A stretch of DNA of 64,000 nucleotides from Owenia fusiformis (Eukaryota): contig CAIIXF020000001.1 in assembly GCA_903813345.2 (NCBI GenBank), forward strand, positions 1,922,001 through 1,986,000. Direction: 5' to 3'. Every line of letters begins with the position of its first letter. Within the stretch, counting starts at the first letter, position 1. Positions 12,701-52,096 of this stretch are shown here, in pieces. The position numbers were made by a program, and so were the translations under genes. The notes under the pieces are model-generated. The model searched no databases. It saw only the letters and a list, made by a program, of their open reading frames with translations, and had not been told where the DNA came from.

Positions 12701-15700
12701 TACATGCATATAAGACGTTCCAACTCCCCTTCAGTGTCGAGTAAGAAGGATGTTATGAAAACAATTTATGATCAGCCAAGTGAGTGATTTTACCATGTGG
12801 ATTCTAATGATATGTTCTTTGCATTTCAGAGTGGTTGGGTTTACATGATTTTACTGTCCTTCATTTCGAACTCCTAAATTTCAAATCATTATAAACCACC
12901 TTGTAGAACATCATGAAGAAAAGAGATGAAGATGGGAAAGATTACTGAAAATAGAGGCAAATTTAGAATGATAACAAGAAATTTCTCTTGAGTAATACCA
13001 AATGAAGTGAAATCAATAAATAAACACATACTTGTAGAAAGTAATTAATTTATGACAATTTCAGTGATTGACAATAATCGAATGAAATCATCCAAAATCC
13101 CTCATTCAACTGCTACAAAATAAAATAAAATCACCATTATTAGAGATAATAGCATGGTATTTATTTCACACTTTGTAGAGTTTCTTTAAAACACCCACTG
13201 GGTGTTTATTATGTATTCGATTACATGCAATTCTAAAATCCTCAAGCTATTCACCTATAGACCTTAGTTGAAAATTGATTAATACATCTACTGAATATTG
13301 AACTTTAGAGGAGCTTTCCCTTATACCTGTCATTCATATATGACCCAAGTTAGCCACCTCGTGGTGAAACTGGGAACTGACAACTGGCATCTACTGATAC
13401 TTATTGATACCTTGATGCAAAAGAATGATTTAATTCCCCAATGAAATAGATAATGTACAGATTTTATATTTCATAAGTTTATTATGAGACCCCATGTCCA
13501 AAACAGACACAATCATGACAATGGGCGATACAGTAACATGCATTTTCATTTATGATTTATTCAATTCTTGCATTACAATTCGTTAATCATCTTGAATGCC
13601 AATGTGTAAAGTTCTCGTTCCTTGGATCAGAAGGTAAAATAAATGGACTGAAATAGGACTTAAAAACTGTTCCTCGTATAAGGTGTTACGCTTCAAGAGG
13701 TGTTTCACTTAGCAGGTTGTACTGTACAGTGTACTTATCATTAATGGTAATGTATTCAAACCTAGGCAGAAACAAAATGTACGCACACACAGTGACCATT
13801 TAATTGACTGAGTCAGTGAAAGGTGATGAACATGTTTATTTTAAACATACATTTTGCGAGAAACCCCTTTTTTCTTTTCTTGAAAGCATGTATGAAAATG
13901 ATATATAGTTTGCTGAAACTCACGCTCTGGCTGATCCATTCGTTTCTGTTTTAGAATATTAATTCCATGTTATTTAAGAGGAAACGTGAATTTCATCATG
14001 GTCAAATGGAAGCCAAAGACCCTACCTAAGTATTAAAAATAAAGAGAGTAAAAATGTTCAATTGTTTTCGATATTTTTAAGCTTTTTTAAATAAAATAAC
14101 ACATATTACATCGCATTTATATCTTTACATCGTAAAATCAATAACATTTACGAAAAATGGTCAAACTGATATATATTTCTCAAAGCATAAGGGTGTTCCT
14201 GTGCCTACAAAAGCTAATTGAATAACCAGTAGCCTGTAATATAAACACAAATAAATCTTTTGAAAATAACCGTTACAAAATATTTGAATTTTGCGCATCT
14301 TGTCGAGTCTTTGATCACGCACTTTTAATAGTAGACGATCACTGTACATACAGTGCTTAGGTAGCAACACAATAGAATGACCTGTGTTTTATTTATAAGG
14401 ATATCCAGTTATAATAAAGAGCAATGTATTATTTTTCTATTGTTTTTTAAGTATGTACACTTGGCAATAGCTATCCAAAACCAGTGTGGCACAAAAGATG
14501 ATTGACCGTTTCATGCAGTGCATTAAAGCTTAACTAATTATACCCTATTCACTCTTTCAATAGTTGAATAGTAAACACAAAAGAAACAAACTTAAAACTA
14601 TATATGCCCTGTTAAATGCAGTGCACTGAAGCTGAACTAATTACACCCACTCACTTCCCAATACACTTACCTCATAGTCAATACAAACAAATTCAAATTA
14701 TTGACAATAATTTCATTTATGGCAATGTGAGAGTCGGTTAAGGTTTAGGTATGAACAAGCCCTAAGAAGACCATTCCCCGGTTATCCCAGGTAAATGTTT
14801 CTGGTAAGTTACACTGAACGAAACATCAAGCTTCAGATCTCGAGAGTACGAGATGAGACTTTAGACGAGATATCGATAGGATTGTAGTTGGAGGGTTTTC
14901 TCCCTAGGTGCGTACAAAATCCATTAACATCAATGTAAGTTATACATTTCGATTCTTTTCCCTCACCTCCTTCCCCAGCTTACACCACCAGTTGGAGCCT
15001 TATTTTCGCCCAAGAAGATGAGTTGGAGATGGTATTATAATATATCCAATTGAGCTAATTAACAGTTATGTCAAATTGTAAACTCTTGTAGCTAATTAAC
15101 TTAAATTAGCCATTATTTTCCAAGGTATTGTGTTTTGTGTTAATTGGCTCAATATTTATTTATATTAATTTTATATTAATAATTTTACATGTACGACTCT
15201 CACGGCCATATCTATACTCTACATGAACATAAATCAAGTTTTCCTAAAATTGATCTTGATCCACTTACCTTTGATAAGAGTTAGTGCCCATTGTGTGGTT
15301 TAAGTTAGATAAACAATTCGTCTTGGGTCTTAGGAAAAATAATGGCCTCTGGGCTTTGCCCCTTGGCTATTATTCATCCTAATCCCCAAGACTCATTGTT
15401 TATCCATTACATAATGTCCTGTAATTACTGTTACTGCAGATGATTTTTATTCTGTAACACTTAGTTTTTTTTCATTTAGCACTTTGTACTTGTAGCACTT
15501 TGTACTTGTACATACATAACAGATGGAATTTATTGTGTTCATTCAGTGATAGCTACCCTGTGGTTCTGCTACGAATCTCTAAATCACTCCTGGATGTATC
15601 TTCTGGTATGTTTGTCACTGGGTGTCCAGAGGATCAAATCATTGGTAACTCAGCAAAGAGACGCAGGCGCAGAAAGCGTCAAGCTAGTTGCGTAGATGCA

Positions 15701-16114
15701 TGTAGTGGACAAGGAGATAGACAAAGCCAATGTGAATTGGACTGTGATAATCTTGGAGTTGAGGTATTTCAATCATTTATAAAACCTAATACACACATTT
15801 CATGAAAATTAGAAATGTTCAATCTGAAGACAAATCTTGAATACTTGATCAGTGATAACATATTTCGATTGTGATGCCATTGAAAAAATGACTGAAACTG
15901 TCAAACAACACATCAAAACATAAAAAAGGTATACAATTTCATTTTATTTCAAAATATTTTTCAGTATGCTCAAGCAGCGTCCAGTTCAGTTGTAGTAGTT
16001 GAGGAGGAGGCTGCAGAAGAGGACAGCACCCTGGCTGATAATAGTAATGCGAGGACAACAGCTACAGCTTCTATGATACTGATGGCTTTAGCACTCCTGG
16101 TTCATCTTCACTAG
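3786..16114 (+). CDS. Divergent RGM (repulsive guidance molecule/hemojuvelin)-like GPI-anchored protein, 584 aa, 10 exons
   Basis: Exons 3786-3810, 4583-4877, 5999-6201, 9358-9580, 9968-10157, 10478-10690, 11645-11759, 12182-12305, 15547-15763, 15965-16114; all introns GT-AG and phases join into one ORF. Motifs: signal peptide MRVLILLSVILGTQA, CFGDPH, TC, LPTAFDG, GCP, KRRRRRKR, C-terminal Cys cluster, hydrophobic tail MILMALALLVHLH*. Confidence 0.85.
5125..5930. mobile_element. Mutator-like MITE in intron 2 of the RGM-like gene
   Basis: TIRs TAGCCTTGCCCAAGTCGGT... of about 55 bp; 9-bp TSD CTTTTGTTA at 5116-5124 and 5931-5939. Confidence 0.85.
6545..8785. mobile_element. Probable solo LTR (~2.2 kb) in intron 3
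   Basis: TG...CA ends, 4-bp TSD ATAT (6541-6544, 8786-8789), internal AATAAA at about 7434. An alternative left end at 6530 (TGTGACGTAAC) is a 10/11 inverted match to the right end. Confidence 0.5.
7845..8415. repeat. Irregular array of the TTTTGCTCCGGAGC motif
   Basis: About 8 imperfect copies at irregular spacing inside the putative LTR. Confidence 0.6.
10997..11541. mobile_element. Non-autonomous TIR element, copy 1
   Basis: TIR AAAGGA(G)TGGTATCGATATGGTGAAC plus an internal inverted repeat; a longer relative lies at 31573-32391. Confidence 0.75.
12356..14355. mobile_element. 2.0-kb non-autonomous DNA transposon, Transib-like or Harbinger-like
   Basis: Near-perfect TIRs of about 75 bp starting CACTGTATGTACAGTGATCG; CTTAG on both sides (12351-12355, 14356-14360). 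Confidence 0.85.
15308..15404. repeat. Imperfect palindrome / hairpin MITE
   Basis: GATAAACAAT...ATTGTTTATC arms pair over most of the length around a GGGCTTTGCCC centre. Confidence 0.65.
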
Positions 16115-17981
16115 ATCTCTATGCCAACCACATCCTTGTATAATTCCTGGTGTTCTTCCATAAGGGATATATAGGGCAAGATGCATGGTACATCAAAGAG
16201 ATAGACTATCTAAAAAGCTAACCTTGGATTAACATAAATCTGACTCTCAGCACTGTATTTGATTGATTTAAAATGTTCATAATATTATGAAATTGACAGT
16301 TTGTCCATATCTGATAAAGACAGGATACCTTCAGGTACACTTAGACCAAAAAAGATATTTCTGGTCATTTATACTTCAAAAAAGTAATAAATACATTACA
16401 ACTAGAAATATCTTGATAATGATGATAGTTCAAAGTGTCAATTTTGTGCTCATTGGACAAAAAATCTCAATTCATACTCATGTTATGACTTTATTTAGAA
16501 ATTTTAATAGACGTTATATGTAATCAAAATCATAAGCAATCAACAGTCTGCTGGCAGATATTTTTGCACACTTTGCACACAAAATTATTGAAATGTTAGC
16601 TTCATGGACTATTCATGTAAGAAATAAAGTATCCTATATTGTTCTGTATTCTACAAATTAAAAGCATGAGGGCCCTGCCCAATTGAGTTATCTTTAAGAG
16701 ATTCTGCATACATGAATGCTTTAAATGTTCAATATGGAATGATAAAGGATTCTTAATTGCAAATCACCTGCTTGATGGAAATGAGTACAAAACTTTCTTT
16801 AATTAAATATTCAAATACAAATTTGAGGAGATTTTTGCAAAGATCAGTTTTATTTACGAAGTTTGTATTCTCCATCCATTCATCCAATGGTACATGTAAC
16901 ATGAAGTATGCATTTAACAATTGATGTGAATTGCACAGTTTACAAACACACACTTATTGTATTTATATTTGAGATAATTTAGGTGCACTGTTAGAAATTT
17001 TCTTAAAGTACAGTAAAACTTGTCATATCCGAAACCCCACTGGAACTAGCCAAAAGTGTTAGGGCTAGCAGGTGTGTTTATATTTTAAGATTTTCTTAAT
17101 AAGTGTGTCTATGAGACAAAATTGGGACTGAAAAAAGTGTTCACATTGAGAGATTTTCTGATCAGTGTTTGGATATGAAGGTTTCACTGAAGTTAAATGA
17201 GTATTGTATTTACATGAAAGATGTTGTACTTTCAATAGATTTTTACTCCTAACGTTATTTGACTAACAGTGAATAAATATAACATAATAAATATATGATT
17301 GAGGTTTATGTATTTATTTTTTACACAAAAATATGTATAAAAATATACATGCAATATATTTAAATAAGCACCTATATATTATATAATACTATTATTCTTA
17401 TCCTAAATGTTTTTTAATTATAATGATCTGAAGATAGCATCATAAAAAAAGATTGGTACTTTTGGTTCTTCTGAAAATATAAAATCTTGAAAAATAGCTC
17501 AAATATTAATGAACAGAATTTCACAACTTTCGCCTTTTCAATCTTTAGAGGCAGAACAAATATACATGAAATAAATGTTTAAATGAATTCACTGTCTATA
17601 TAAACTTTGATAATTCCAGAAAAGCAGGTTATATCATCGTCTTTTGATGGTGAAAATCACATATCATACTGACTTCAAAGTGTTTTAACGTCATTTAGGA
17701 TAACAAATACTGACTTTTAATTGCAAAAAATTGTGTATCAATTTGAGATCAATGTTTTAATAACAAGTAGTACAAATATAACATAAATATTCATCTTTAA
17801 TACAGATATCTCAAACATAAATTTGAGATGATGAGAGAAACACTAACTGTAATTGTTCCTATATCTAGTATAATTTAATCACTGTCATATCACAGCCTTC
17901 AGTTTTAAAATTCTTTCACTTATAAAAGGTCCATTACGGGTTATCGTCATCTGAGATCACTTTCCACATTTCATTTGGGAT

Positions 17982-19016
17982 TTAATAATCATCATCTGCA
18001 TACTTTCCAATCCTATCTGGTGTATCCTGTTCTTGTTCTACTTCTCCAGATGTGAAGTGGAATGGTCCACGGAGGAACTCACCCATATCCAATATACCAT
18101 CATCTAGAAGCACAAACACAGAAAATCAGTTTAAAGACAGAATCATTTAGAGAATATATATTTCCAATAAAAACTTACCGCTTTTGGTGAATCACTGAAA
18201 CTAGAGTATATTGGTGAAATTTATGAGGTAGAAATGCTTGTTCACAATATTCTAAAAAGGCTCAATACAACACTAATCTAAATCCCAAAAATTGAATCAC
18301 ATGTCTGTACATATACAGTTATAGAACCTGTTAAGTGAAACAACTCTACAAATGGAACACCTCTGTGAGTGGAACACTTTTCAGGTGACTAAACCTTAAA
18401 TAAACTTCTATAAGTGGAGCACCTCCCATGTGGAACACTTTTAAGAGGTTCCATAATTGAATGGTGTTCCATTTAAAAAGGTTTTACTGTATATATATTC
18501 TGCCACTTGCAGTAATAACTAATATTCATTTAATGTGCATGATTTGATTATCAGATACTGACTTATACCCCTCAAACTTTAAAAAATCTGTTTCAAATGT
18601 GATACTTTTTTCTTTCAAAACACTAATTTAGCAATAACATCACAATTTAACGTACCATTTTCATCAGCCATTCCAAAGGCTTCAATGCACTTTTCAGGTG
18701 TTGATGAGATGGCTTCAGCAAACTCTGTCAGGGTCACTCTGTCGTCATTGTCTGAATCATATTTGGAGAGATCAGAAGAAAATGGCTTCTCGTCATCATT
18801 AATGGCAACTGATCGGCGTTTACGCCCAATATTGCAGACTTTGTGGCAGACAGGAGCACAGATCCCTGGGAGGGTGCATTTTTGGTTACAGTACATACTG
18901 CAGACTGGTGCGATGATACGACGGAGACCAAGTCTTGGGAGACGTACCCTCCAGGCATCACTTGTGTGTAAAGAGGCAACAACGGCCAGAAGGAGGAAGG
19001 CAATAGTGGCTTTCAT
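17982..19016 (-). CDS. Secreted precursor: cationic six-cysteine peptide plus acidic EF-hand pair, 160 aa
   Basis: Coding exons 19016-18656 and 18103-17982 with a phase-1 GT-AG intron. Layout: signal MKATIAFLLLAVVASLHTSDA; WRVRLPRLGLRRIIAPVCSMYCNQKCTLPGICAPVCHKVCNIG; RKRR; EF loops DSDNDDRVTLTE and DENDDGILDMGE (the second is formed across the splice). Likely 5'UTR exon about 19281-19360. Confidence 0.9.
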
Positions 19017-19384
19017 CTTAATACCTGCAAAACATTAGTAGTTATTGAATTTAAGGAAAAGGAATATATGCCATACAAATTTAAATCATTTATTTATTAG
19101 TGTTTGGAGCTATAAATAGCCTGATCAAAGCCTGACCATCACAATGTTTTGTAAACTATGTAAGATTTACAAATGTGCTTTCTCACTACAAAAACATAAA
19201 CTTGTGTTTCATAAACTCTGATAATGAGAAACTAATCAGCTATTGAAGGTTTCACTGTACTGGAATGTAATTTTGCTTACCTTTAAATTCAATTGTTCCA
19301 AAAAACTATAGTCTTCAGTGTTCTGATGCAGTGTTGTCTCTGAGAGTCCAGTGAACTATGTGAAGTAATCCTCTTCATTTTAGC

Positions 19385-19394
19385 TTTATTTATA
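19385..19394 (-). promoter_or_regulatory. TATA box of the peptide-precursor gene
   Basis: TATAAATAAA on -, about 105 bp above a GTAAG donor at 19280 that can splice to the acceptor at 19025, just before the ATG. Confidence 0.55.
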
Positions 19395-33099: not shown

Positions 33100-35180
33100 C
33101 TTTTAGCATTGACTGCTTATTCCTATAGTATTGATTGTGCTTGTTGTTCCTATAGCATTGGTTGTGGTTGTTGTTCCTTTAGAATTGGTTATGCTTGTTG
33201 TTCCTACACTATTGGTTGTGCTTGTTGTTCCTATAGCATTGGTTGTGCTTGCTGTTCCTTTAGAATTGGTTATGCTTGTTGTTCCTATACTATTGGTTGT
33301 GCTTGTTGTTCCTATAGCATTGGTTGTGCTTGCTGTTCCTTTAGAATTGGTTATGCTTGTTGTTCCTATACTATTGGTTGTGCTTGTTGTTCCTATAGCA
33401 TTGGTTGTGCTTGCTGTTCCTTTAGAATTGGTTATGCTTGTTGTTCCTATAGCATTGATTGTGCTTGTTGTTCCTATAGCATTGGTTGTACTTGTACCTA
33501 TATTATTGGTTGTGCTTGTTGTTCCTATAGCATTGATTGTGCTTGTTGTTCCTATAGCATTGATTAATGATTGTGCTTGTTGTTCCTACACTATTGGTTG
33601 TGCTTGTTGTTCATATAGCATTGGTTGTGCTTGTTGTTCCTATAGCATTGATTGTGCTTGTCGTTCCTAAAACATTGGTTGTGCTTGTTGTTCCTAAAGC
33701 ATTGGTTGTGTTTGTTGTTCCTACAGCATTGATTGCGCTTGTCCTTAAAGCATAAATTGTGTCAATTGTTCCTATAGCTTTGGTTGTGCTTGCTGCTCAT
33801 TTAGAATTGGTCATGCTTGTTGTTCCTATACTATTGGTTTTGCTTGTTTCCAATAGCATTGGTTGTGCCTGTTGTTCCTATAGCATTGGTTGTGCTTGTT
33901 GTTCCTATACTATTGGTTGTGCTTGTTGTTCCTATAGCATTGATTGCGCTTGACCTTAAAGCATTAATTGTGTAAATTGTTCCAAAAGCATTGGCTGTGC
34001 TTGCTGTTCCTTTAGAATTGGTTATGCTTGTTGTTCCTATACTATTAGTCGTGCTCTTTGTTCCTATAGCATTGATTGTGCTTTTTGTTCCTATAGCACT
34101 GATTGTGCTTGTTGTTCCTATAGCATTGGTTGTGCTTGTTGTTCCTATAGCATTGATTATGCTTGTTGTTCCTATAGCATTGATTGTGCTTTTTGTTCCT
34201 ATAGCATTGATTGTGCTTGTTGTTCCTATAGCATTGATTGTGCTTGTTGTTCCTATAGCATTGATTGTGCTTATTGTTCCTGTAGCATCGATTTTGCTTG
34301 TTGTTCCTATAGTATTGGTTGTGCTTGTTGGTTCCTTTAGCATTGATTGTGCTTTTTGTTCCTATAGCATTGGTTGTGCTTGTTGCTCCTATAGTATTGA
34401 TTGTGCTTGTCCTTAAATCATTAATTGTGTCAATTGTTCCTATAACATTGGTGCTGCTTGGTGTTCCTATAGAATTGGTTATGCTTGTTTTTCTATACTA
34501 TTGGTTGTGCTTGTTGTTCCTATAGCATTGGTTGTGCTTGCTGTTCCTTTAGAATTGGTTATGCTTGTTGTTCCTATACCATTGGTTGTGCTTGTTGTTC
34601 CTATAGCATTGATTATGTTTGTTGTTCCTAAAGCATTGATTGTGCTTGCTGTTCCTATAGTGTTGGTTGTGCTTGTTCTTAAGGACAGGGTGCATGTTGG
34701 GAAATTTTCTGCATTCCTCAATTGAGTCACATGTTATTTTTCAAACATGAATAACTCCTTCCCCACATTGTCTACATCTTCCAAGTTTGCACTAAGAGTG
34801 CACTTCTGTGTCTAGAAAAGCCCTGTGAGAAGGTTTGTTTTGTAAAATGTATAAAAAATGAGAAAATTCAGTGAAAAAAATTTCTGAAAATTTTCTGATT
34901 TTTTTTCACTGAATTTTCTTGTTTTTTATACACTTTATCAAAACATTCTTCTCACAAGTCTTTTCTAGGCACATAAGTGCACTCTTTGTGCAAAACTGGA
35001 AGATATATAGACAATGAAGGGAAGGAGTGATTCTTGTTTGAAAAATAACATGTGACTCAATTGAGGAATGCAAAAAATTTCCCAACATGCACCCTGACCT
35101 TAAAGCATTAATTGTGTCAATTGTTCCTATAGCATTGGTTGTGCTTGTTGTGTCAATTGTTCCTATATTTACCATTGATT
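33100..35180. repeat. 27-bp minisatellite (ATTGGTTGTGCTTGTTGTTCCTATAGC)n, roughly 60 units
   Basis: Read directly; 81-bp three-unit higher-order period at about 33150-33450; interrupted by the MITE at 34683-35099. Confidence 0.95.
34683..35099. mobile_element. Fully palindromic MITE, Kolobok-like
   Basis: TTAA TSD (34679-34682, 35100-35103), GG...CC termini, arms pair along about 200 bp. Confidence 0.8.
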
Positions 35181-41900: not shown

Positions 41901-44900
41901 TCAGACTGTTGTTTTTCCTCGTATCAAATCTGCAGCCTTCTCGCCAATCATGATAGATGGTGCATTAGTATTCCCAGAGGTGACGAATGGCATGATAGAT
42001 GCATCCGCAACCCTCAGGTTATCAATTCCTTTTACTCTGAAACAAATAAATAACTAGAATTAACATCAAAACAACACTACCTTATTTATCCCACCAAACG
42101 AAGTTCCAGGGGGATATAGAGAAGTCGTCCATCCATCCGTTTGTTCGTCCGTGTGTCCAGACAATAACTCAAATTACAGTTGACGGATTTGATTCAAATT
42201 TTATAAGGTTATGCCTTATGGGAGTAGGACCTCTGCTCGAGAAGGAATTTTCAACATGGCCACTCAATTCAAAATGGCCACCATTTCTCGTAAAAAATGT
42301 AATCTTTGATAATTCAAACTGTAAACAGATTTCAGTCAAATTTTATATGCCGATACCGAAGGATATAGTAGCTCTGTTCAAGAAAGAATTTTCAAGATGG
42401 CGGCTGAACTTTAAAATGGCTGCCATTTTTCGTAAAAAATGTTATCTTTGATAACTCAAATACGAGTGAATGGATTTGGGTCAAATTTTGGGGTTTGTAG
42501 AAAAATTGGGTACCAGGTACCGGGTAGTAAGTCCTCCATGCTGGGTTCAAACTTGGTACCTGGTACCCGGTCAAAAAAACTGGGTACCCAAAAAACGAAA
42601 AATACGAATATATAACATAATTAGATCATTAGAAAACGTGTAAGATTTGTTTTGAATTTACAAAAATGTATGTAACTTCCTTCAAAATTGAGCTAGAAGC
42701 TTCAAATAAAAAGCATTTTAAGGCAAATTGCAAGCCTCTGTGACCCCTCCTTTACTTGACTACACACCTTCTCACACGGTGGGGGGGGGGTGTTACCAGG
42801 TGAGTGCTAGACTTTTGTTGTCAAAAATGTGCAGTAGCCTTGTCATCGATATGGTTTCCAAATCAGGGAATATTGCCACTGATGTTGAGAAGTATCACAT
42901 TCATTTTCAGCTTCCAGGGTTTTACTGTTTTCTCAGGGTTCATATCAGTAATTTTACCTACTTCAATTTAACCTACTTTTTAAACTTGACCTACTGTTTT
43001 AAAATAAAGACAAGTAATCACCATTTCACTGTGTAAGATAAGTCATATTTTGATGAAAAGGAAAATAATACAATAATATTTGGCTTTGGGATTCCCTCTT
43101 TGCAATAGTGTAGTTCGGTTGTAGGGTTAGAGTTATTTCAAGTTTCAACATATTTGTAGACCTGTAGCATATATTATAGTGCTATACTATGTCACAATCA
43201 AATCTTAACTCTGCCATGTTAATTTTGGTACCAATTGCTCAATGCTCCTTTGATAAAATACATGAAACCTTTTGAAGTGAGAACAATCTATTGGCACTAA
43301 AAACATGAAGAGTATTTTTGGCTGGAAGTATGGCCTTAACTCGCACGTTAGTTTAATACTTGTATTGAATTTGTAAAACATGAAAGTGTAAATGTCCTTA
43401 GTCAGTCTGAGCTGATAAAATAAATCCATTTTATAAATCTGAATACCTTAATCGTGGATCAACAACGGAGTTGTTGTCAGATTCAGGGCCCATCTTGCAA
43501 GTACTTGTAGGATGAAATACATTAAGAGGTGTTGCACGAATATAACATTCCCAGTATGGATCACTATTAAATGCATGTGTGGTACATAATGGGTGATGTT
43601 TAGCACTCATTTGAAATCCCCCATCTTTAAATGCTTGAGTTTTGGAAAGTGTTTCAGTCACAACCTTGATTCCTGTAAAAAAGGTGAGACTGTCAGAATG
43701 TAGTTGACTTTATCTGTGCATATAATAGAACTCTTATTGACTCACATGACCAGTGTGGCCAATGGAATTGCTCATTTCTCCAGCACTATGATATATGATC
43801 ATGATAATATAAAAGCTGGAAGGGAAACTGGAAAGTTAAAAACTTAGATTCACATATTAAAATCTGTCTGATTTCTTATGTGAATTTTTTTCATATGTGC
43901 ATGTAGAAGTTGTATAATATATACCTTCTACTAAATGTTTCACATCAACTGGGTCCTCCAAGTATTTTGGGTCAATCAGGGGATAATCAAATGGGTCAGT
44001 TGATCTCAATCTGATGGTCCCATTACTATGAGGGTGGAGTAACACAACAATAATGCTGAGACCCATCTTGCCATCATACTCTTCATGTGGATACATACTG
44101 TCCCATACCTAAAATATAATACCATAAAAGCTAAAACTTGAATAGATATGAATATAAAAGTTCATCATACAGCAGTCTTTCAGATATTTAAATTTATTAA
44201 ATATGAAATACTTAAGACAAAAGATTAGTCTTGCAGTTTGAGCTATCCACGTGGAGATCTTTTAGATTAAAGCGTACCTCATCACGGACCCCTATTACAT
44301 CTTTCCATATATCTCCAATTAGTGCTGCATTAATGAACATTTGTACATATGGGAATTTGTGGAAAGCTGGCTGATGTGAAGTCTTCATGAAGTAAACCAT
44401 ATCAGTTACAGTGCTCCTTTTAACACCTAGAAATATTGAGGGGAGTTGACATGGAATTATTGTGACATATAGCAACACAACAGTGTTGAGATTATAGACT
44501 ATGGTAGTCCCGTTATATTCATGTATTTATTATCTGATTTATATTGAATTTATTATTTTGTACTACTTTTTTTGAATAATAAAAAATACCTGTCCCAAAA
44601 AAATAATATTTCCATCTTTCTTGCCAAGAGGTAATGTCTTTCTCTGTTATTGTTTGAGCTTTAGTAAAGAAGTTGATATGCTGAGCTGCAACATGGTCTT
44701 GTAAATTCTCCCCAACTGGCAAATCTGCAACCACTGGGATCTAAGAGAGGATAATACTTATGAGTTTCTCTGTACCAAACTTATCAGTGGCGGATCCAGG
44801 AAAAATAAAAACTTCCGTACTTGCGCGTAAACTTTTTTTGCGCCCTTTATTTACAAATTTGGGCCCAAATTTTCACATTTTTGGGCCCAAATTTTCAAAA

Positions 44901-50900: not shown

Positions 50901-52096
50901 TATTTATGTGCAATAATACTCTATGATAAATTGGAGATATATTTTTCTTAAATCCATGAGAATCTTGCTGAATCTTTTAATCCTCGACAGCAGTGATTCT
51001 GTGGTATTGTCTTGTATTGCCAGTCTATCCTAGTGCCAAGGTTGAATAGGGCTCCTATGGGAAGAGAGGTTGTAGGGTACCATGCCTCACCAGCTTCTAA
51101 CAAGAGTACACTGGTGTGGGGATCCTCTGACAATCTGTTAGCTATGACTGCTCCGGCTGAACCACCTCCAACTGAAACATACGAGGGGCGAAGAAAATAT
51201 AGAAAGTAATCTTTCGTAAAGGTTTATCCCGGAGGTTCAATGTGTACAAAATTCAGCGAGGGTCATAGGCTGAACCTTCAGATATCCATCTGTTCCCATA
51301 CTAATTTGTCAAATTTTGATGTGTTTCCATACCAACCAATATAACGCCCAAAGCCATACCAAATGTAAGACCAATGCCATACCAAATGTTTAAATGTAGG
51401 ACCAATGCCATACCAAATGTTTAAATATAGGACCAATGCCATACCAATGCTATGATTGGTCAAAAGTAGAATATTTTTGGGGAAAAAACTAATATTTAAA
51501 CTGAAGCACCCTAGCGATCTTTGAGGAAAACGTTCCAAAACAACCTCAAATTCAGGATATGTGTAACTATGCACACCATCCCGGCCTCTCCCTTTTCTAA
51601 TATATCTCCAAATTGCTCAAACACAGTATGCAACCAATTAACATACTACAAAATTAAGAGTTCATTTTAGAGGGTAACCAACCCCCCCACCACCCGAACC
51701 TTAACTACTGTTGATTTACGCTGCAAAATGACCAGTTTATTCATTTTCATAAAAACTGCACCCCAGCTACCCCTTGAAGAAAAGTGTCTGACGGCCCTGA
51801 TGCTTGAATAACTATAACAGATATCTAGGTTACAGTAACTTAAAACAGTCAAAATAGTTCATAGAGATATTGTTTACAATCTTACTACCTCACTACTAGA
51901 TACATGTGACCTTCACTTTGTGAAAAAGATATGCATATATACTATTCAATGTTAAAATGAAATTAAGCTTACCTATTACATAGTCATATTCCTCATCCAG
52001 AACATCTCTTATCATAGAATCAATGTCTAAATTATCCTTTGTGAAATACAAATACACAGCTACAAGTGCAATGAAAGCTGAGAGTTTCTGCAGCAT
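41901..52096 (-). CDS. GMC oxidoreductase (glucose/choline/alcohol dehydrogenase-like flavoprotein), 595 aa, 11 exons
   Basis: Exons 52096-51973, 51171-50969, 48888-48699, 48439-48308, 47518-47394, 46019-45852, 44740-44590, 44426-44278, 44108-43925, 43672-43447, 42036-41901. Motifs: [99 protein letters not shown]. Confidence 0.95.
42086..42490 (+). mobile_element. HINE-like element in the last GMC intron
   Basis: TTATCCCACCAAACGAAGTT...GGGATA hairpin start, (CCAT/CCGT)n, body shared with 1890-2158. Confidence 0.65.
44785..45190. mobile_element. hAT-like MITE with 5-bp TSD
   Basis: Perfect 15-bp TIR CAGTGGCGGATCCAG; TSD CTTAT. Confidence 0.85.
46595..47142 (-). mobile_element. TRIM (miniature LTR retrotransposon) with tRNA-derived LTRs
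   Basis: LTRs 46942-47142 and 46595-46819 (TGTAACGACCC...GGTCATTACA); primer-binding site TGGTGTCAGAAGTGGGAT; polypurine tract AAAGGGGGAGATAG; 122-bp internal part; 4-bp TSD ATAA. Confidence 0.9.
46691..46766 (-). pseudogene. tRNA-Lys(UUU)-derived segment inside the LTR
   Basis: GCCTTTATAGCTCAGTCGGTAGAGCATCAGACTTCTGAGGGTC...GGTTCAATTCCC. A and B boxes are present; the anticodon loop is deleted. Confidence 0.8.
49303..50900 (+). mobile_element. HINE/DINE-like element carrying a 10-copy satellite
   Basis: Subterminal IR ATGTCACCACC / GGTGGTGACAT; (GGCGTCCGGCGGTT)n near the 5' end; 10 units of about 125-180 bp (CATCTACATGTTCTCAG...TGACCTT...) at about 49490-50870. Confidence 0.8.

Follow-up and report, generated by a model that had tools for sequence, protein, structure and literature searches.

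Among the described precursors closest in layout to the one reported here are the mytimycins of mussels. In a mytimycin precursor, a signal peptide and a 54-amino-acid (aa) antifungal peptide with 12 cysteines are followed by a dibasic site and then by an anionic extension of 75 aa that contains an EF-hand; its Cys array has ten invariant and six accessory positions, and it is reported in Mytilida only (PMC8004829). Pleurin/HCS2 precursors of molluscs, nemerteans and brachiopods carry a PRX-amide peptide directly after the signal (PMC8398477, PMC7749107, PMC8557429); pleurins themselves are linear and short, with YPR-I/L/V-amide at the C-terminus (PMC7749107), and their genes have a single coding intron (PMC8557429). 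The third comparison concerns β-hairpin antimicrobial peptides (AMPs), a class of cationic peptides of 11-25 aa with more Arg than Lys and at least two Cys pairs, at least three residues apart, for which a 2026 review demands experimental evidence of class status and in which the annelid peptides it covers derive from BRICHOS precursors (PMC13001179). Here we describe a minus-strand gene of the annelid Owenia fusiformis, located in a stretch of 64,000 nucleotides (nt) of contig CAIIXF020000001.1 (assembly GCA_903813345.2, positions 1,922,001 to 1,986,000; hereafter the window, whose own numbering is used throughout). As read and translated from the sequence, it encodes a 160-aa secreted prepropeptide, from an ATG at 19016-19014 to a TAA stop at 17984-17982, in which a cationic peptide with six Cys precedes an acidic pair of EF-hands.

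This annelid gene is real and expressed. The inferred gene has three exons, two of them coding, with one coding intron (18655-18103). Its spliced product (P0001 + Asp + P0002) is identical over 160/160 residues to a public O. fusiformis protein, P0088, deposited as "unnamed protein product", and this identity requires the splicing of intron 2. In three RNA-seq runs with the same species label (X13-X15, of each of which 6-12% was read), reads cover both coding exons and the 3' untranslated region (UTR) at a depth of 1-5, with the first mate always on the plus strand. RNA depth is zero in the non-repeat intron 2 bins 18132-18293 and 18510-18563 and does not exceed 1.67 in 18564-18617. Upstream of the coding sequence, a TTGCAG acceptor located 8 nt ahead of the ATG, a GTAAGC donor (19280) and the motif TATAAATA (19394-19387) suggest a short non-coding first exon, over which run X15 has a depth of 3.97 in bin 19266-19300 but of 0.78 in the model-intron bin 19212-19265. 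The 3' UTR contains ATTAAA signals near 17873-17878 and 17796-17801. Contig run X1 and part of the RNA reads also carry a second sequence variant over 17952-19001, which differs at 10-15 positions in every 140-220 nt; a paralogous locus on the same chromosome (P0003, at which 11/160 residues differ) or an allele could account for it.

The signal peptide was predicted with the -3/-1 rule for signal cleavage, and the motif at its border with the peptide (D/G-A/G, then W) is conserved across the family in a 20-sequence alignment (A3). The predicted peptide (aa 22-63, nt 18953-18828; WRVRLPRLGLRRIIAPVCSMYCNQKCTLPGICAPVCHKVCNI) counts 42 residues, including 5 Arg, 2 Lys and 1 His and no Asp or Glu, and is followed by G-RKRR and an acidic stretch. 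Its Cys residues, at positions 39, 43, 47, 53, 57 and 61, are separated by gaps of 3, 3, 5, 3 and 3 residues (C-X3-C-X3-C-X5-C-X3-C-X3-C), and "APVC" occurs twice within it. The 92-aa tail contains 26 acidic residues (16 Asp and 10 Glu), for a net charge of about -19. Both of its 12-residue loops follow the EF-hand pattern D-x-D/N-x-D/N-G/x-x-hydrophobic-x-x-x-E (Pfam PF00036, PF13405, PF13499); P0088 passes the Pfam cut-offs for EF-hand_1 (26.5 bits, cut-off 25.4) and EF-hand_6 (26.2 bits, cut-off 25), and its score for EF-hand_7 (26.4 bits) is under the cut-off of 30. An earlier interpretation made from the letters of this DNA (the sequence-only reading) had listed a 21-aa signal, a 42-aa peptide with these residues and this Cys array, G-RKRR, a 92-aa tail with 26 Asp/Glu and two EF-hand loops; sequence, translation and residue counts agree with it on all of these, including the Gly-preceded R-K-R-R site, present at 18813-18827.

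The sequence-only reading had also pointed to mytimycin as a parallel with a different Cys array, and the comparison holds up on both sides (PMC8004829). In both precursors a signal and a cationic Cys-rich peptide are followed by a dibasic or furin-like site, and the C-terminal extension is anionic and holds an EF-hand; both genes have a non-coding first exon (a suggested one here). In contrast, the present peptide has 42 aa and 6 Cys in a symmetric CX3C ladder, instead of about 54 aa and 12 Cys, and the family to which it belongs is found in annelids, a chiton, bivalves, a nemertean and a sea anemone, instead of in Mytilida only. No 12-Cys array occurs in any of the 18 proteins retrieved by the exhaustive search described below. 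Membership in the mytimycins was rejected on the Cys array, the tails being compared by described layout only. Similarly, the gene resembles pleurin/HCS2 in its secreted precursor, its peptide right after the signal and its single coding intron, but differs from pleurin in its predicted 6-Cys hairpin product. Pleurin membership was rejected because the PRX-Gly-dibasic site is missing: Owenia has LPRL-G-L-RR and unionids have LPRI-H, and PRX-G-K/R-K/R is found in no member. The HCS2 precursor is said, in the title of Bogdanov et al. 1998, to have an EF-hand motif region.

The likeness to β-hairpin AMPs lies in a net charge of +7, three symmetric Cys pairs and 5 Arg to 2 Lys. As in tachyplesin, gomesin, arenicin, capitellacin, theta-defensin and hepcidin, the Cys would face each other across a predicted hairpin, and the C-terminal amide that is frequent in the class is predicted here. 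Tachyplesin and gomesin share the CX3C...CX3C spacing. Known members of the class mostly have one or two disulfides, whereas three rungs are predicted here, and four in molluscan members, together with a 17-residue basic tail. Furthermore, unlike arenicin, alvinellacin, capitellacin and nicomicin, the present precursor has no BRICHOS: Pfam detected this domain in 0/20 family members and not in P0088.

Sequence comparisons indicate that the gene belongs to an old, unnamed family present in annelids, molluscs, a nemertean and sea anemones. A word-indexed protein search gave four matches among 10 candidates, all from Owenia. An exhaustive phmmer scan of 1.84 billion representatives gave 18 proteins at E <= 1e-3. 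Fifteen of these share one layout, in which the signal is followed, in most cases, by a basic W-R-x-R tail, then by two CX3CX3C triads with a loop between them, a KR/RKRR cluster and a pair of EF-hands; the other three (P0011, P0020 and P0022) are generic multi-EF-hand proteins. Members occur in molluscs (the chiton Liolophura sinensis and the bivalves Tegillarca granosa, Ostrea edulis, Sinanodonta woodiana and Potamilus streckersoni), in the nemertean Tubulanus polymorphus and in the sea anemone Actinia tenebrosa, and all of them are labelled "uncharacterized", "hypothetical" or, by automatic naming, "EFCAB1-like". Owenia members occupy six loci on four chromosomes (at least five paralogs beyond the present gene), and two of the 15 same-layout proteins, P0006 and P0007, are imperfect Owenia copies. 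The latter (P0007/P0023) and P0006 form a tandem pair on one chromosome, where their accessions are neighbours: in P0007 the EF-hand pair is retained, several Cys are lost and IGRILKR stands in place of IGRKRR, and the gene model of P0006 lacks the signal and the first Cys triad. Another unusual member, P0029 from T. granosa (269 aa), has one peptide module, then an EF-hand tail that is cut short, and after it a second one that is complete, reflecting either a fusion of tandem genes in the model or a real duplication. Multi-copy expansions are lineage-specific (six Owenia loci, several chiton loci, adjacent Actinia loci), a pattern typical of effector families.

The cnidarian members deserve separate consideration. 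A search seeded with the Actinia protein gave four matches among 10 candidates including the query, the others being a neighbouring Actinia paralog, an unnamed relative and one fragment. A pairwise BLASTP comparison of P0088 with the Actinia protein aligned the whole precursor, triads included (E 4e-14). When the Cys module alone of three cnidarian proteins was compared with a ten-row profile of annelid, chiton and bivalve sequences and two of unnamed source (A5), scores reached only 2.6-7.6 bits, and 32, 1 and 7 out of 1000 composition-matched shuffles did as well. Thus, the cnidarian link rests mainly on the shared architecture and on the EF-hand part.

The sequence-only reading did not recognise the Cys module as a named family, and our searches came to the same result. 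In the 20 members submitted to Pfam, the N-terminal Cys module is without any family assignment, as matches were to EF-hand-type families (EF-hand_1 and EF-hand_6 in 20/20) with one weak NIF match (1/20). When the peptide module was used for a profile search of the PDB, the single match, to a 32-aa chain "m1-2" (E 3.2), was non-significant and was rejected. A profile search yielded 62 rows among 3078 candidates, eight of which are family members while the other 54 bear EF-hand Pfam labels only, and none of the 62 is named mytimycin or pleurin. With the whole protein, the ESM Atlas gave EF-hand clusters only (scores <= 0.84, to be taken as leads only), and with the peptide part no usable match. 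Our full-text literature search, in whose coverage subscription journals are mostly missing, found no publication naming or describing a Cys-hairpin/EF-hand family. The earlier proposal of a new peptide does not hold for the record itself, since the protein is already in public databases as uncharacterised and has relatives in several phyla.

Within the 20-sequence alignment A3, four Cys (C39, C43, C53 and C61) never vary, and conservation reaches 90% or more at C47, C57 and R68. The Cys gaps are always symmetric about a loop of variable length (2 to 17 residues between the triads): for example, they are 3,3,5,3,3 in Owenia, 3,3,3,2,3,3,3 in several bivalve-type members, 3,3,7/11/12,3,3 in the chiton and 3,3,4,3,3 in Actinia. 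Such conservation of the array across phyla shows that it is not a chance pattern, and symmetric triads kept while the loop varies in length fit a pairing of Cys from arm to arm. A basic cluster of KR/RR type is located at the peptide/tail junction in 20/20 members. The predicted net charge of the peptide is at least +6 in 15/20 and that of the tail is negative in 20/20, and complementarity of charge between peptide and tail, as calculated from these sequences, is a family trait.

AlphaFold2 was run on P0003, which is 95% identical to the exon-A product P0001 and differs from P0088 at 11/160 residues, with a 16-sequence alignment. Mean predicted local distance difference test (pLDDT) was 75, with 90-96 over the EF-hand pair (residues 81-130), and the model shows the tail folded as a Ca2+-binding EF-hand pair. 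A Foldseek search of the PDB returned this pair only, against lobes of NCS-1, calmodulin and troponin C (best for NCS-1/calmodulin, with a root-mean-square deviation of 1.1-2.3 Å over 54-68 columns and E ~1.5e-2), and nothing at E <= 0.001. For the Cys core the model gives two strands (39-49 and 52-61, pLDDT ~85), and so does that of an 8-Cys oyster member, P0014 (38-47 and 56-65, pLDDT 86-87), but the two models are not independent, most of the alignment being shared. In addition, Cys positions sum to 100 (39+61, 43+57, 47+53) around a central L-P-G turn, and a Pro is conserved inside arm 2 (C-A/T/I/N-P-V-C). We thus read the module as a β-hairpin zipped by three ladder disulfides, which would be C39-C61, C43-C57 and C47-C53. 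The sequence-only reading had instead taken the CX3C pairs to staple a helical hairpin. Plant alpha-hairpinins and twin-CX3C proteins do carry CX3C motifs on two antiparallel helical arms, but here both arms are predicted as strands in P0003 and P0014, and the conserved Pro between the two Cys of arm 2 argues against a helix. A helical hairpin was accordingly ranked below the β ladder, and on these models it is the less likely of the two.

How might such a precursor work? Charge opposition throughout the family, multi-copy expansions and the mytimycin precedent lead us to favour a host-defence-type peptide released by convertase cleavage and amidation from an anionic Ca2+-binding propiece, as in mytimycin, and we give this proposal about an even chance of being correct. 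Signal peptidase would cut between Ala21 and Trp22, and a furin-type convertase after R65-K66-R67-R68; a carboxypeptidase would then trim the basic residues, and Gly64 would be converted into a C-terminal amide on Ile63. The product would be a 42-residue peptide with a net charge of about +7 to +8 and, three disulfides and the amide included, a monoisotopic mass calculated at 4772.47 Da, in which a 23-residue core (C39-C61) forms a two-stranded β-hairpin and a Trp/Arg/hydrophobic tail lies N-terminal to it. Its most likely role would be that of a membrane-active host-defence peptide, the acidic tail balancing its charge so that, until cleavage, it stays harmless and can be packed within the Ca2+-rich secretory pathway. 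The data above establish the gene model and its transcription, the existence of the family, the fold of the EF-hand pair and the sequence motifs. We infer the cleavage and amidation steps from established processing rules, and the disulfide pairing, the antimicrobial activity and the role of the tail have the same inferred standing, as do the toxin-like activity and the Ca2+-responsive inhibition by the propiece proposed in the sequence-only reading.

Several observations weigh against this proposal. At the level of the gene, RNA depth is low (1-5 reads in samples of 6-12% of each run), and the junction between exons A and B is absent from the listed read joints of X13-X15, so that splicing rests on the pattern of coverage and on the public protein model. 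At the level of processing, an internal R32-R33 pair could yield other products, with 3213.49 Da expected for the 30-mer left after cleavage there, and Owenia tails hold a seventh Cys (C110 here) outside the three predicted pairs. The amidation signal noted in the sequence-only reading exists in the present gene (Gly64 before RKRR), but, as read by eye, Gly directly precedes the basic cluster in 11/20 members and is missing in 9/20, and amidation is thus not a family rule. In 5/20 members the peptide is weakly cationic (+1 to +4). At 42 aa, the predicted product is above the 11-25 aa typical of β-hairpin AMPs (the core C39-C61, a hairpin in AlphaFold models only, has 23 aa). That β-hairpin rests on AlphaFold predictions with only 16-20 aligned sequences, and models of short peptides are described as unreliable in the AMP review (PMC13001179). 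Finally, identity with non-annelid members is 0.39 for the N-tail, 0.34 for the hairpin and 0.31 and 0.32 for the EF-hands. Conservation of the peptide on a level with the EF-hands is unusual among fast-evolving antimicrobial peptides and better fits a specific receptor or partner.

This last point leads to an alternative that we consider unlikely, namely a hormone or neuropeptide precursor in which the amidated Cys-hairpin, or a short fragment such as WRVRLPRLGL freed at R32-R33, acts on a receptor, the EF-hand region being a conserved precursor domain as in pleurin/HCS2. A convertase site with Gly is classical prohormone grammar, the peptide motifs are as strongly conserved across phyla as the EF-hands, and Owenia shares with unionid mussels a W-R-x-R-L-P-R-L/I placed immediately behind the signal. 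However, nemertean and cnidarian members are without this motif, PRX-Gly-dibasic occurs in no member (0/18 of the exhaustive-search matches; Owenia has Leu between Gly and RR), no pleurin-named protein is among the 62 profile rows, and so many paralogs in one genome are unusual for neuropeptides, as is a net charge of +7 to +12. Under another hypothesis, to which we give a somewhat smaller chance, the functional unit would be the secreted EF-hand pair itself, as a Ca2+-binding protein of matrix, mucus, tube or granule that the Cys hairpin and basic tail anchor or oligomerise, whether or not the junction is cut. Canonical loops are indeed kept in all members (EF-hand_1 and EF-hand_6, 20/20), 7/20 weakly match the extracellular SPARC Ca-binding model, and the free seventh Cys of Owenia tails could bond intermolecularly; several hosts (the chiton and the bivalves) biomineralise, and Owenia builds tubes. 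On the other hand, sea anemones and nemerteans are non-mineralising hosts, the strict charge opposition of the two halves resembles a peptide/propiece pair, and a KR/RKRR cluster exactly at the module boundary in 20/20 members points to their separation.

The least probable alternative in our estimation is a toxin-like peptide used in defence or predation, for example as an ion-channel ligand, and produced by epidermal or venom-type glands. A compact, multi-disulfide, amidated peptide behind a propeptide would follow the usual grammar of toxins, and a sea anemone and a nemertean are among the hosts, but the family is equally present in non-venomous oysters, ark clams, unionids and chitons. The PDB profile search gave no significant match to solved toxins, and a faint Pfam match to I2 conotoxin (E 0.21, far below the cut-off) is non-significant and was rejected. 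Beyond a host-defence peptide with an anionic Ca2+-binding propiece, one may imagine a broader scenario, which we regard as speculative and improbable: the Cys-hairpin/EF-hand-pair precursor would be an ancient secreted-peptide scaffold older than the cnidarian-bilaterian split, in which the EF-hand pair, like a calmodulin lobe, acts as a Ca2+-dependent clamp on the Trp/Arg/hydrophobic tail of its own peptide (both chaperone and inhibitor), and mytimycins (immune) and pleurin/HCS2 (neuronal) would be lineage derivatives with the N-terminal peptide swapped. A predicted complex of the peptide (aa 22-63) with two Ca and the EF-hand pair (aa 69-140), computed without controls or alignment, scored 0.00 and is no evidence either way.

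Table 1. Features of the precursor gene, in window coordinates.
Feature	Residues	Position	Strand	Details
Possible TATA box, TATAAATA		19387..19394	-	~30 nt upstream of the inferred transcription start; putative, from sequence reading only
Inferred non-coding 5' exon		19281..19360	-	5' end approximate; donor GTAAGC starts at 19280; weak RNA support
Intron 1 (5' UTR, GT...AG)		19025..19280	-	Acceptor TTGCAG ends at 19025; RNA depth zero in bins 19050-19211, X13-X15
Coding exon A	1-120 and first base of codon 121	18656..19024	-	8 nt of 5' UTR; RNA depth 1-4, first mate on + strand only
Intron 2 (phase 1, GT...AG)		18103..18655	-	Splits EF-hand loop 2 between its residues 3 and 4; donor G/GTACG after 18656, acceptor TTCTAG/ before 18102 (slash, exon border)
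Coding exon B	Last two bases of codon 121, 122-160, TAA	17982..18102	-	RNA depth 1-5, first mate on + strand only
3' UTR		17750..17981	-	End approximate; RNA depth 1-3 down to ~17754
Signal peptide	1-21	18954..19016	-	Hydrophobic core and -3/-1 rule; predicted cleavage after S-D-A
Arg/hydrophobic N-tail, WRVRLPRLGLRRIIAPV	22-38	18903..18953	-	Conserved in annelid, chiton and bivalve members; AlphaFold pLDDT low, 53-60
Cys hairpin core	39-61	18834..18902	-	Two CX3CX3C triads flanking a TLPGI turn
Gly64 + R65-K66-R67-R68	64-68	18813..18827	-	Furin-type R-X-K/R-R site with amidation donor; predicted cleavage
EF-hand loop 1, DSDNDDRVTLTE	87-98	18723..18758	-	Canonical 12-residue loop
EF-hand loop 2, DENDDGILDMGE	118-129	18665-18656 + 18102-18077	-	Canonical 12-residue loop, split by intron 2

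Intron 2 contains a high-copy dispersed repeat (18294..18509), outside the gene product, over which reads of both orientations raise the bin-mean RNA depth to ~327 and many loose ends and rearranged joints occur; in contig run X1 the word depth is ~15,000, and a diverged copy is located at 13663-13734 (75% identity over 76 nt). Elsewhere in the window, a minisatellite at 33120-34677 (27-bp unit, ~58 copies, 81% matches) yields long spurious open reading frames (ORFs) in several frames. Exon-like ORFs of a GMC-type oxidoreductase are found on the minus strand at 43431-43709 and 50948-51223, one matching GMC_oxred_C (E 3.7e-11) and the other corresponding to an N-terminal Rossmann GxGxxG (NAD_binding_8, E 1e-3). 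About 2 kb from the present gene, a plus-strand ORF (15458-15805) encodes a polybasic KRRRRRKR followed by C-X3-C-X9-C-X3-C, with no Pfam match, and may belong as an exon to a further precursor of a secreted Cys peptide.

If the present peptide is indeed a host-defence peptide with an anionic propiece, it would be a structurally distinct addition to the fewer than 30 known β-hairpin host-defence peptide families, with a CX3C ladder of three or four rungs and an Arg/Trp tail, and the first annelid one not tied to a BRICHOS precursor. The EF-hand propiece of mytimycin would then be a design common to annelids, molluscs, nemerteans and sea anemones instead of a mytilid curiosity, and the family would make it possible to test what a cationic peptide gains from a Ca2+-binding prodomain. 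If the peptide is a signal molecule instead, the family would mark a conserved peptide system, so far unrecognised, of spiralians and cnidarians.

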